Below are positions 1-61,100 of a stretch of 64,000 nucleotides of DNA, piece by piece; within the stretch, counting starts at the first letter, position 1; each line of letters opens with the position of its first letter. Position numbers and translations under genes: made by a program. Location: assembly GCA_964016885.1 (NCBI GenBank), contig OZ024766.1, positions 22,295,912 to 22,359,911 of the forward strand, given 5' to 3'. This DNA is from Eledone cirrhosa (Eukaryota). The notes beneath the pieces were generated by a model. It was not told where the DNA came from. It made no database searches and saw nothing but the letters and a program-made list of their open reading frames with translations.

Positions 1-420
1 TTACCACATTTCCTTTGTTATATATCTATATATATATATAAAGAATGAATAATAACAGGTAGACATCATAAAAAGGTAGTTTATTCCGTGTGCTTACAAG
101 TGTTTCCACGGTGGTACTGCAGCCTAGTTCCGCTACGTGCAAATTCACAAGTATTTGCAGAACTCAAATATCCAATGCTGTGACCACTGTTTCCTCAGAG
201 CAGAATGGTAAATATACAATGTAAAAACCCTGGGTTTTGCATTGGATATTCGAGTTCTGCAAATACTTGTGAATTTGCACGTAGCGGAACTAGGCTGCAG
301 TACCACCGTGGAAACACTTGTAAGCACACGGAATAAACTACCTTTTTATGATGTCTACCTGTTATTATTCATTCTTTATATATATATATATATATATATA
401 TAACAAAGGAAATGTGGTAA
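1..420. mobile_element. Long palindrome (arms 1-178 and 239-420), probable inverted Penelope-like terminal repeats
   Basis: Near-perfect reverse-complement arms containing (TA)n; half hammerhead GAAAcacttgTA. Confidence 0.6.
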
Positions 421-606
421 GGAACCAGATGGACCATAACGCACCAAAGTACTCAATACTTAGGGTAGTAGAGTGGGTAATAGGAAAAAGTATGACCCCG
501 ACGGCATAGCTCAAGCCGTTTCGACGGCTAATTCTGGAGTAAATTTAGTCCAGAATTAGCCGTCGAAACGGCTTGAGCTCAGCCGTCGGGGTCTTACTTG
601 TTCCTA
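421..606. mobile_element. Palindromic repeat (arms 481-538 and 549-606), same family as 37941-38197
   Basis: Arms are reverse complements; sequence shared with 37941-38197. Confidence 0.65.
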
Positions 607-58100: not shown

Positions 58101-61100
58101 CTGTCTGTCTGTCTGTCTGTCTGTCTGTCTGTCTCTATCTGTCTCTCTCTCTGTCTCTCTCTCTCTGTCTCTCTCTCTCTGTCTCTCTCTCTCTGTCTGT
58201 CTGTCTCTGTCTCTCTCTCTGTCTGTCTCTCTCTCTCTCTCTGTCTGTCTCTCTCTCTCTCTGTCTGTCTCTCTCTCTCTCTGTCTCTCTCTCTCTCTGT
58301 CTCTCTCTCTGTCTCTCTCTCTCTCTGTCTCTCTCTCTGTCTCTCTCTCTGTCTCTCTCTCTGTCTCTCTCTCTGTCTCTCTCTCTGTCTCTCTCTCTGT
58401 CTGTCTGTCTGTCTGTCTGTCTGTCTCTCTCTCTCTGTCTCTCTCTCTGTCTCTCTCTCTGTCTCTCTCTCTCTGTCTGTCTGTCTGTCTGTCTGTCTGT
58501 CTGTCTGTCTGTCTCTCTCTGTCTCTCTCTCTGTCTCTCTCTCTCTCTCTCTCTCTCTCTCTCTCTCTCTCTCTCTCTCTCTATCACACATATATTTCTC
58601 TACCCTGCATGTCCAGTCCTTCCTCCTCTCCACTAACAGCACTCCTCCCCCCGGCTCTTTCAGAAACGTCACTCCAGTCCATTCACGACCAACATCGAAG
58701 ATTCAAAACCTTATTTCCACGACCTAAATCTGTTCAAAGATTACAGTAATCTGTGTTCGTCTACGATCCAACCCGAAGATCTGAGAAAATCCTCCTCTGG
58801 TGGCCCAGGGGGGCAAATGGCTTCGCAGTTTAATGGAAGAGACCCCGATGAGATTAGACGAGAGGTTCGTGTTGTGTGGTGTGGTGTAGTGTGGTGTTGT
58901 GTGGTGTGGTGTGGTGTGGTATTGTGTTGTGTTGTGTTGTGTGGTGTGTTGTGAGGTGTGGTCTTGTGTGGTGTGGTGTGGTGTTGTGTGGTGTAGTGTG
59001 ATGTTGTGTGGTGTTGTGGTGTAGTGTTGTTGTGTGGTGTGGTGTGGTGTAGTGTGGTGTAGTGTGGTGTTGTGTGGTGTGTTGTGTGGTGTTGTGGTGT
59101 GTTGTGTGGTGTTGTGGTGTGGTGTGGTGTGGTGAGGTGTGGTGTGGTGTGGTGTGGTGTGGTGTGGTGTTGTGTGGTGTGTTGTGAGGTGTTGTGGTGT
59201 GGTGTTGTGTGGGGTGTTGTGTGGTGTTGTGGTGTGTTGTGTGGTGTGTTGTGAGGTGTTGTTGTGTGGTGTGGTGTGGTGTGGTGTGGTGTGGTGTGGT
59301 GTGGTGTGGTGTGGTGTGGTGTTGTGTGGTGTGTTGTGAGGTGTTGTGGTGTGGTGTGGTGTGGTGTAGTGTGGTGTTGTGTGGGGTGTTGTGTGGTGTT
59401 GTGTTGTGTGGTGTGGTGTTGTGTGGTGTGTTGTGTGGTGTGTTGTTGTGTTGTGAGGTGTTGTGTGGTGTTGTGTGGTGTGGTGGTGTAGTGTGGTGTG
59501 GTGTGGTGTTGTGTGGTGTTGTGGTGTGGTGTGGTGTTGTGAGGTGTTGTGGTGTGGTGTTGTGAGGTGTTGTGGTGTGGTGTGGTGTTGTGAGGTGTTG
59601 GTGTGTTGTGGTGTAGTGTTGTGTTGTGTGGTGTAGTGTGTTGTGTGGTGTAGTGTGTTGTGTGGTGTAGTGTGTTGTGTGGTATGGTGTAGTGTGGTGT
59701 TCTGGTGTAGTGTGGTGTTGTGTGTGGTGTTGTATTGTGTTGTGGTGTTGTGTGGTGTTGTGTGGTGTGGTGTTGTGTGGTGTAGTGTGGTGTTGTATTG
59801 TGTTGTGTGGTGTGGTGTGGTGTTGTGTTTATATAATAGTGTGAAGTATATATCTGTATATACCATGACTCATGCTCTGTTCACATTCCTAACATTTCTA
59901 CATTATTCTATGTACTATACATGCACCTTTGATGAGTTGTAGTGCACCTGAGCACTGTACACAATAATTTCATTATTATTATTATTATATTAAAAGGGCG
60001 GTGGATTGGCAGTGTCGGTAGAGGGTCGGACGCCATGCTTTGACGCATAGAGTTACGGCCCTTTACCATTCTGAGTTCAAATCCCGCCGAGGTTAACTTT
60101 GCCTTTCATCCTTACGGGGTCGATAAAATAAAGTACCAGTAATACACTGGGGTAATTGCTGGCCTTGTGCCCCCAAAAGCCTCAGTCATTGATGTTATTT
60201 AACTGAAAAGTTTGTTCAAATGAACATCAAATCGCTACCTGCAGCCCCTAGATATTAAGGACGTTTCGGAGGGTTCTTGCTGTTCAGATATATATATATA
60301 TTAGAAAGTGAGGTTTTTTTTACAAAATGAAAAATAACCGAGGTGTCCTACACGAGTGGAAGTATAAAGAAAAAGGGATGAAATCGAAAATGCAACTGAA
60401 GTCTTATTTTTTTAAAAAATATATATATTTATTTGGTTCCTTTACCGGTTTCGCAGTTCTTCTGCTTTTCAAAAGGTGAGTTGAGATGGAGGGTCTGTGG
60501 TTTTTCTCACATGTGTGGTATGGTGTAGTGTTGTGTTGTGTGGTGTAGTGTGGCGTTCTGGTGTAGTGTGGTGTTGTGTGTGGTGTTGTGTTGTGTTGTG
60601 TGGTGTGGTGTGGTGTTTATATAATAGTGTGAAGTATATATCTGTATATACCATGACTCATACTCTGTTGACTTTCTGTGAGAAAAACCACAGGCCCTCC
60701 ATCTCAACTCACCTTTTGAAAAGCAGAAGAACTGCGAAACCGGTAAAGGAACCAAATAAATATATATATTTTTAAAAAAAATAAGACTTCAGTTGCATTT
60801 TCGATTTCATCCCTTTTTCTTTATATATATATATATATATATATATATATATATATATATATATATAATGAAATGACAGGAGGCTGGATTTGTGTAAATC
60901 CTTGAAAGGTTTATTATACTATGATCATTTCAATGACCGGGTTCCGTATGAAATCCAGCCTCCTGTCATTTCATTATAATATTTAACTCCGGAATAGCAC
61001 CACCAACTACAAAAACAAAGACGGTTGAACTGCTTTACGTTGAGTACTCTCTATATTGTTGCATTACGATTGACCATACGGAATAGACCAGCTCTATACA

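Follow-up and report, generated by a model that had tools for sequence, protein, structure and literature searches.

The 64,000-nt window analysed here, a single stretch of Eledone cirrhosa DNA (contig OZ024766.1) within which all element coordinates are given as positions, is animal (octopod) intron DNA, and it holds short insertions of which many carry hammerhead ribozyme motifs and many form palindromes next to (TA)n microsatellites. Matches of two exons (Table 1) place these introns in an ANKS1-like gene of an octopod, encoded on the plus strand. The original prediction had assigned all of the insertions to a single pre-mRNA; the exons and splice signals make this likely for the span 5660-61121; for 1-660 it is unproven. 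Tandem and simple repeats mask 39,545 of the 64,000 bases (62%), and counting by hand gave ~15 insertions of 10 families, which occupy ~3.7 kb (6% of the window). The inserts show no recognisable open reading frame (ORF), as had been claimed for them.

All nine inverted repeats named in the original prediction proved to be real. Alignment of their arms gave identities of 176/178 (1-420), 59/64 (481-606), 67/69 (7876-8099), 113/116 (37941-38178), 145/147 (41966-42298), 95/96 (42607-42851), 147/149 (60363-60824) and 28/28 (60864-60978), together with 22/23 in the outer core of 5662-5769, where indels occur in the inner part. The stretch 1-420, earlier taken for one element, is instead a compound of the family Y palindrome at 41-376, TA runs and ends of the family found at 403-607 (family X), and the mirror symmetry of 41-376 extends through the TA runs into the family X ends at 1-18 and 403-420. 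In the wider region 1-660, the Y palindrome and the TA runs are flanked on either side by identical 18-nt X ends, and the arrangement extends past the left edge of the window. Such a compound mirror suggests that a chimeric Y-(TA)n-X unit was copied.

A descriptor scan of both strands, with a main descriptor set after the candidates had been inspected, located nine full type I hammerhead folds, with cores at 5717, 7775, 35630, 42204 and 60716 on the plus strand and at 7974, 42064, 55417 and 60472 on the minus strand. Seven of the nine lie inside the 23,533 unmasked bases, compared with a mean of 0.035 and a maximum of 2 in 200 dinucleotide shuffles. A stricter first descriptor, requiring a long helix III and a paired position 10.1/11.1, returned four folds only. 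A second descriptor, which allowed a long helix II, missed 55417- and added a tenth fold, 198-, within 1-420 (shuffle mean 0.015), whose helix II stem is paired at 7 of 9 positions, with A.G at 10.1/11.1. All ten folds carry the type I core: CUGANGA or its U3-A8 covariant, GAAA, UH and helices I-III. The complete folds claimed earlier, eight when one mirror pair is counted once and nine when it is not, are thus all present where they had been placed, and they represent six families rather than "about five". The pairing of hammerheads with palindromes stands in part: six of these nine folds lie inside palindromes, whereas 7775+, 35630+ and 55417- lie outside, and two palindrome families (403-607/37942-38195 and 42569-42851) have no full fold. 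Overall, eight of the 10 families carry a hammerhead.

Table 1. Insertions, ribozyme motifs and host exons in the window
Feature	Positions	Strand	Description
Family Y palindrome	41-376		arms 41-178 / 239-376; (TA)n on both sides
Type I hammerhead	91-202	-	core 198; long helix II domain; predicted cut after 95
Family X, copy 1	403-607		palindrome 480-607; 77-nt left tail
Family Y 3' end	635-660	+	26 nt, then TA
Exon-like segment	966-1152		judged by eye from splice signals
Family H5717, copy 1	5660-5850		damaged motif in inverted arm (5662-5711); full fold in forward arm; ~80 nt of tail before (TA)n
Type I hammerhead	5713-5761	+	U.U at 10.1/11.1; predicted cut after 5757
Family H7775	7703-7854	+	single 3' end at (TA)n
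Type I hammerhead	7769-7824	+	helix I 6 bp, II 4 bp, III 2 bp; predicted cut after 7818
Family H7974	7882-8190		inverted full body 7882-8040; forward partner 8041-8108; 82-nt tail to (TA)n
Type I hammerhead	7912-7982	-	helix II spanning 16 positions; palindromic helix III insert; predicted cut after 7920
Family H8329/V	8212-8373	+	hammerhead 5' part (core 8329); interrupted at 8374 by a repeat like a short interspersed nuclear element (SINE)
Family H35630	35534-35745	+	single end, then (TACA)n
Canonical minimal hammerhead of Penelope-like element (PLE) type	35626-35661	+	extra A after A9; G10.1-C11.1; loop 3 a 2-nt palindrome; predicted cut after 35657
Family X, copy 2	37942-38195		palindrome 37942-38178; 17-nt right tail
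Family H42064	41878-42298		palindrome 41970-42298; 92-nt left tail
Mirror hammerhead of family H42064	42008-42072	-
Mirror hammerhead of family H42064	42194-42262	+
H42064-family 3' end, diverged (81%)	42360-42490	-	between TA runs
Family Z	42569-42851		palindrome 42607-42851; 38-nt left tail
Host exon	43415-43710	+	78% identity with Octopus bimaculoides protein
Family H5717, copy 2	55369-55501		inverted body and forward tail; 4-nt overlap; (TA)n on both sides; no palindrome
Type I fold of H5717 copy 2	55373-55423	-
Host exon, SAM domain	56381-56519	+	best solved match ANKS1B (2kiv, E 3.3e-08)
Degenerate H35630 relative	57575-57768	+	77% over 66 nt; core altered at 57667-57668
Family W	60301-60824		arms 60363-60511 / 60677-60825; 62-nt left tail
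Mirror hammerhead of family W	60439-60476	-	U3-A8 core
Mirror hammerhead of family W	60712-60749	+	U3-A8 core
Family W spacer (165 nt)	60512-60676	+	copy of local intron DNA
Family H8329/V	60864-61121		inverted part with hammerhead 3' half; 28-bp mirror arms; 143-nt right tail
H8329/V hammerhead 3' half		-	predicted cut after 60920
Exon-like segment	62739-62810		judged by eye from splice signals

The motifs display traits of the PLE type, namely an extra A after A9, the U3-A8 core and a palindromic helix III. At position 10.1/11.1, G10.1-C11.1 is present in only two of eight families, with A-U in three, U.U in two and A.G in one; the folds with U.U (two families) or A.G (one) in place of G-C are 5717+, 55417-, 8329+ and 198-. 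Loss of G10.1-C11.1 may lower hammerhead activity. Each arm of family X copy 1 holds a tentative hammerhead 3' half (GAAA, 4-bp helix III, GUC) and lacks the CUGANGA box, a pattern that was observed nine times against a shuffle mean of 3.3 and a maximum of 9, and which is not significant alone. The Rfam hammerhead models, proposed earlier as a check, gave no match in the whole window at gathering score, microsatellite matches to microRNA models dominating among the 150 of 675 entries listed by E-value. No hammerhead emerged at E<=10 in 7700-8460 or 35530-35770, and four sub-regions compared with Rfam held no ribozyme, nor any twister-like motif in families X or Z. Because even the canonical minimal PLE form at 35630 escapes detection, the Rfam models are insensitive to this hammerhead subtype.

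The palindromes had been described as bordered almost throughout by (TA)n, which is correct only once their tails are considered. In eight of the nine, direct contact with (TA)n or a TA-like run is confined to one arm, the second arm extending 17, 38, 62, 77, 77, 82, 92 or 143 nt before (TA)n is reached. With tails included, (TA)3 adjoins 21 of 24 hand-placed outer ends, compared with 49 of 199 other unique-segment ends and a background of 16% of all 12-mers, and all 10 folds read outward toward the TA run. The tail-less arm terminates at a 3-4-nt TA-alternating overlap in five of eight cases (p ~1e-4, from resampled positions in the same elements). The short arm has lost 17 and 77 nt in the two copies of family X, and family H5717 occurs both as a palindrome with a tail (5660-5850) and as a plain inversion (55369-55501), in which the tail joins the reversed body at the body's end point. 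The inner end lies 6-7 nt ahead of the core in both H5717 copies, 66 nt from it in H7974 and 39 nt in W. One-sided tails, arm ends that differ within one family and the plain inversion at 55369-55501 all make the palindrome look like something produced on insertion rather than the mobile unit; the earlier view of palindromes as mobile elements themselves is contradicted by the tails and by this non-palindromic copy. The family W insertion carries, in addition, a record of its surroundings: 59 unique nt of its spacer match 59830-59888 at 95%, with the same GTGTG-type repeat preceding both, which identifies the source as intron DNA ~800 bp upstream in the same orientation and the event as local capture during insertion.

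Other copies were sampled in four public runs from four studies, mapped to 7703-8450 only and covering three of the ten families. Each of these is highly repeated: in run X1, summed depth, which is no copy number, was 26 in the first bin and 10^5-10^6 over the elements. For H7775 and H8329 depth declines steadily upstream, as in 5'-truncated ends (in X1, from 138,697 near the 3' end of H7775 to 686 at the core bin), whereas H7974 forms a flat plateau of 0.9-1.8 million across 7903-8027 in the same run, and the reads show this family to be discrete and high-copy, with a fixed inner end. Among 15 of 39 H7974 joints listed, all depart from the inverted body within 8032-8040 and resume in the forward part within 8075-8160, nine of them without overlap (re-entry beyond 8108); the joints 8040 to 8096 and 8040 to 8159 recur in raw reads of run X21, from an independent study. 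Read ends piled at 8046 in X21 were set aside as what we infer to be a restriction site of a restriction-site-associated DNA library, not biology. Among 40 of 117 H7974 variants listed, all seven at paired positions keep the pair, five of them turning G.U into Watson-Crick, one more falls at a terminal mismatch and none in the core. Position 8373 is a loose end in all four runs, other copies of H8329/V running into sequence that lies at 60864-60922, and this sequence completes the fold of the 8329+ motif.

Head-to-head ends, the one-sided tail, captured host DNA, opposite-strand hammerheads and the U3-A8 core make it probable that the insertions are pseudo-long terminal repeat (pseudo-LTR) ends of PLEs at (TA)n, with priming on both target strands as the leading route of palindrome formation—the latter because the fixed inner end of H7974 joins a variably started partner. 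The architecture lends good support to the Penelope-like link drawn in the original prediction. A PLE protein encoded elsewhere would nick both strands of the (TA)n run, which is self-complementary. From one 3'-OH, copying would begin at a distal site and yield the tail; from the other, it would begin at an internal site, often TA-like, and proceed through the body to the RNA 5' end, after which the two complementary DNAs (cDNAs) would join head-to-head. A first copy halting near the internal start would give a plain inversion, as in 55369-55501 and most listed H7974 joints, one overrunning that start would give a palindrome with a one-sided tail, and a detour onto nearby DNA or RNA could have produced the spacer captured within 60363-60824. 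What was observed is the anatomy, the high copy depth and the joints; the enzymatic steps we infer throughout. The hammerheads probably ride along as passengers and depend on a dimer or on assistance from protein. The likelihoods we attach to this reading and to its rivals overlap in part and do not sum to one.

Published accounts of PLEs, in their accessible portions, contain much of this anatomy. Minimal type I hammerheads with an unpaired base after A9, a palindromic helix III and U3-A8 occur in PLE terminal repeats, where opposite-strand pairs 100-700 bp apart were ascribed to truncated PLEs and where cleavage was low, with none as monomer (PMC4209133; Cervera and de la Pena 2014). The motifs described here resemble these in the type I fold, the short palindromic helix III, the extra nucleotide after A9, U3-A8, the opposite-strand pairs 100-700 bp apart and the many unrelated families per genome; they differ in that only two of eight families keep G10.1-C11.1 and that helix II is longer in several. 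The accessible text of PMC4209133 makes no mention of cephalopods. Adjacent inverted truncated copies with a 30-40 bp tail, often at one end, a (TA)n bias and non-autonomous Chlamys are described in PMC8557442; inverted pseudo-LTRs with a one-sided tail, junction palindromes and captured host DNA, for which self-priming was proposed, in PMC3846280. In purified form, the PLE protein of Anolis is able to cut and to extend each of the two strands, with two internal starts bounding the tail, and the hammerhead is dispensable and protein-assisted (PMC11167929). The octopod insertions share with truncated or solo pseudo-LTRs of endonuclease-positive PLEs (Neptune, Penelope/Poseidon, Nematis) the head-to-head inverted ends, the one-sided tail, the capture of host DNA, targets that are AT-rich or (TA)n and a hammerhead near the 3' end (PMC3846280, PMC8557442). 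Unlike those, they show no ORF, ~10 families within 64 kb, frequent TA overlap at the internal start and, as far as the known insertions are described, a capture from ~800 bp away. Partial tandem copies of the pseudo-LTR-ORF-pseudo-LTR type are absent from the window.

Several observations weigh against the PLE-end, two-strand-priming interpretation. A link to reverse transcriptase (RT) or GIY-YIG ORFs, named in the original prediction as a check, was not found: Pfam comparison of 48 of 163 frames, all from the window, returned neither domain, only the C2H2 fingers of a repeat end like that of a long interspersed nuclear element (LINE) and the host SAM domain. Family Y has no visible tail, family X holds perhaps half a hammerhead, and family Z has no ribozyme by descriptor scans or Rfam. 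The tails contain no consistent open frame, and the idea that they encode an ORF start was rejected for that reason. They are also, at 17-143 nt, mostly longer than the 30-40 nt described for PLEs, and the Anolis protein starts without target homology, in contrast to the TA overlap at five of eight ends here (PMC11167929). Minimum-energy folding of the isolated motifs formed helices I and II in only three of eight, and no two-sided compensatory change was present among the 40 of 117 H7974 variants listed. Finally, the ratio of joints is no frequency, and palindromic joints may be under-reported, because short contigs and mirror mapping may conceal them.

Within the same PLE origin, the short units could instead be self-standing non-autonomous families with their own short RNA, SINE-like or akin to monomeric retrozymes—a possibility that we rate as appreciable, though less likely than not to hold. 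The flat depth plateau and fixed inner end of H7974 speak for it, as do inner ends that match in both copies each of H5717 and X, and non-autonomous PLE derivatives are known, namely MRC1 (PMC8557442) and retrozymes (10.64898/2026.07.22.740005). However, H7775 and H8329 taper off in the upstream direction, in the manner of longer elements that have been truncated, and a fixed end would also be expected from an autonomous transcript starting in the 5' pseudo-LTR combined with an internal RT start, as may be deduced from PMC11167929. Moreover, the window contains no tandem hammerhead arrays among the 150 of 239 entries listed and no repeated same-strand folds in the fold scans. Non-LTR retrozymes, as far as described (PMC7229834; 10.64898/2026.07.22.740005), are similarly short and non-coding, have a type I hammerhead, exist as monomers too and are probably moved by PLE proteins, a shared trait; unlike retrozymes, which are head-to-tail tandem units by definition, the units here are single or inverted head-to-head at (TA)n.

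It is less likely that the inversions, again of PLE origin, arose by fold-back self-priming or template jumps of one cDNA (Arkhipova et al. 2013). In family X the arms of one copy share variants that differ between copies, so that both arms derive from one template, and in both copies the centre of the palindrome is a hairpin at the same place (the centres of copies 1 and 2 lie within ~12 nt of each other). Fold-back would account for perfect palindromes, for family X and for the 1-420 compound mirror with its TA runs and second family. It needs an overlap, though, and this is absent in 55369-55501 and in nine of the 15 listed joints, unless extra deletions are assumed; besides, a second round of priming, on the target, would fit the TA overlap found where the tail-less arm ends. 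TA-targeting miniature inverted-repeat transposable elements (MITEs) with long terminal inverted repeats, happening to hold hammerhead-like motifs, are largely refuted and highly improbable: near-perfect long arms and TA flanks suit them, but they are at odds with one-sided tails in eight of nine palindromes, with outer ends differing within a family, with copies that are not palindromic, with graded truncation and with hammerheads in eight of 10 families at a level far above chance (family Z alone being without any ribozyme). Fold-back artefacts of assembly or library in low-complexity DNA, conceivable in a window that is 62% masked repeat, are most improbable of all, as the arms differ by substitutions and indels, the joints occur in X1 contigs and X21 raw reads, and the families are present in four runs from four studies.

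Beyond these rivals, two further systems invite comparison with the PLE-end reading. L1 twin priming, reportedly recognised by Ostertag and Kazazian in 2001, is said to yield an inverted upstream part fused to a 3' part in forward orientation, microhomology marking the internal site of priming. The insertions here resemble it in their inverted-to-forward joint with microhomology; they differ in the GIY-YIG PLE enzyme proposed for them, in their (TA)n target as opposed to a T-tract with poly(A), and in the frequent overlap that gives palindromes. Naiad PLEs, remnants of which are reported in Octopus, share the (TA)n bias and the inverted structures (PMC8557442); as they are described there as lacking canonical hammerheads, they could explain only families Z or X. 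Octopus vulgaris contains 31 recently active PLE families (PMC13282606), and the accessible texts of PMC13282606 and PMC8967140 hold no occurrence of 'ribozyme' or 'palindrom'. Literature searches (hammerhead and Octopus; PLE twin priming; both-strand priming or microhomology), in which subscription journals were thinly covered, returned no paper on these elements and, with Repbase outside their scope, no published description of twin priming in PLEs. Octopus motifs could be listed in the supplements of the 2014 and 2021 papers. The insertions are a very dense new set of a known architecture, and the evidence for double priming is the sole part for which no published precedent was found.

For the host transcript the consequences of ribozyme activity are probably small. 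Only five of the 10 folds lie on the sense strand of the gene. The hairpins predicted around 5717, 42204 and 60716 (-60, -219 and -271 kcal/mol) far exceed in energy the isolated motifs (-7.5 to -11.3 kcal/mol), so that these three are predicted to be locked in long hairpins, and the two free sense folds, 7775 and 35630, have a 2-bp helix III or none and are modelled as a hammerhead at minimum energy in neither case. With the sense folds either locked or not folding as hammerheads, cleavage of the host pre-mRNA appears unlikely, and the effect on it implied by the original prediction is weak. Octopods belong to an animal group with heavy RNA editing, and the long intronic hairpins are plausible editing substrates.

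Some further features of the window deserve mention. The ANKS1-like gene includes a very large host exon at 3281-5204 (~640 codons), with poly-Ala, Gln, His, Gly and Asp runs. Minisatellites with units of 40-99 bp occupy 2508-3151, 7276-7480, 11143-12550, 12779-13571, 16232-16967, 17624-18104, 18795-19618, 21348-22904, 29906-31270, 35869-36662 and 38347-40769; several consist of tandemly expanded internal segments of repeats that resemble SINEs or LINEs, and one 49-bp unit has expanded at three separate copies of a single repeat. Two copies of a LINE-like 3' end (1185-1471 and 34765-35051) are 98% identical, contain a C2H2 finger frame and each adjoin TA. The segment 33813-34156 has three internal direct repeats of 40-110 nt and is similar to 22928-23063. 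At 1826-2460, a 635-nt segment ending at (TA)n combines hammerhead-like first boxes, without a second box, with a 100-aa frame (2084-2383, minus strand); the frame was rejected as a PLE remnant, with nothing above 0.8 in the Atlas and one spurious match to a tandem-repeat protein. A 20-base pattern searched in metagenome contigs gave a single match, inside an apparent bacterial gene, judged to be chance.

The ~3.7 kb in question, which resemble MITEs or unknown repeats, likely represent debris of Penelope type that carries ribozyme motifs undetected by Rfam. How PLE inverted ends and one-sided tails are made is named as an open question in PMC8557442, with regard to the origin of the inverted structures, and in PMC11167929; octopod genomes appear rich in the relevant junctions, which makes two-strand priming addressable by computation alone. 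Tentatively, and with some doubt, octopods may harbour discrete, very high-copy non-coding hammerhead elements of 140-310 nt with their own fixed 5' end: a dispersed, non-tandem, SINE-like class that would borrow PLE proteins and undergo twin priming at (TA)n. If true, the thousands of junctions of this class would amount to a naturally kept archive of how PLEs make their second strand and their inversions; such SINE-like hammerhead elements would also seed octopod introns with long double-stranded RNA.

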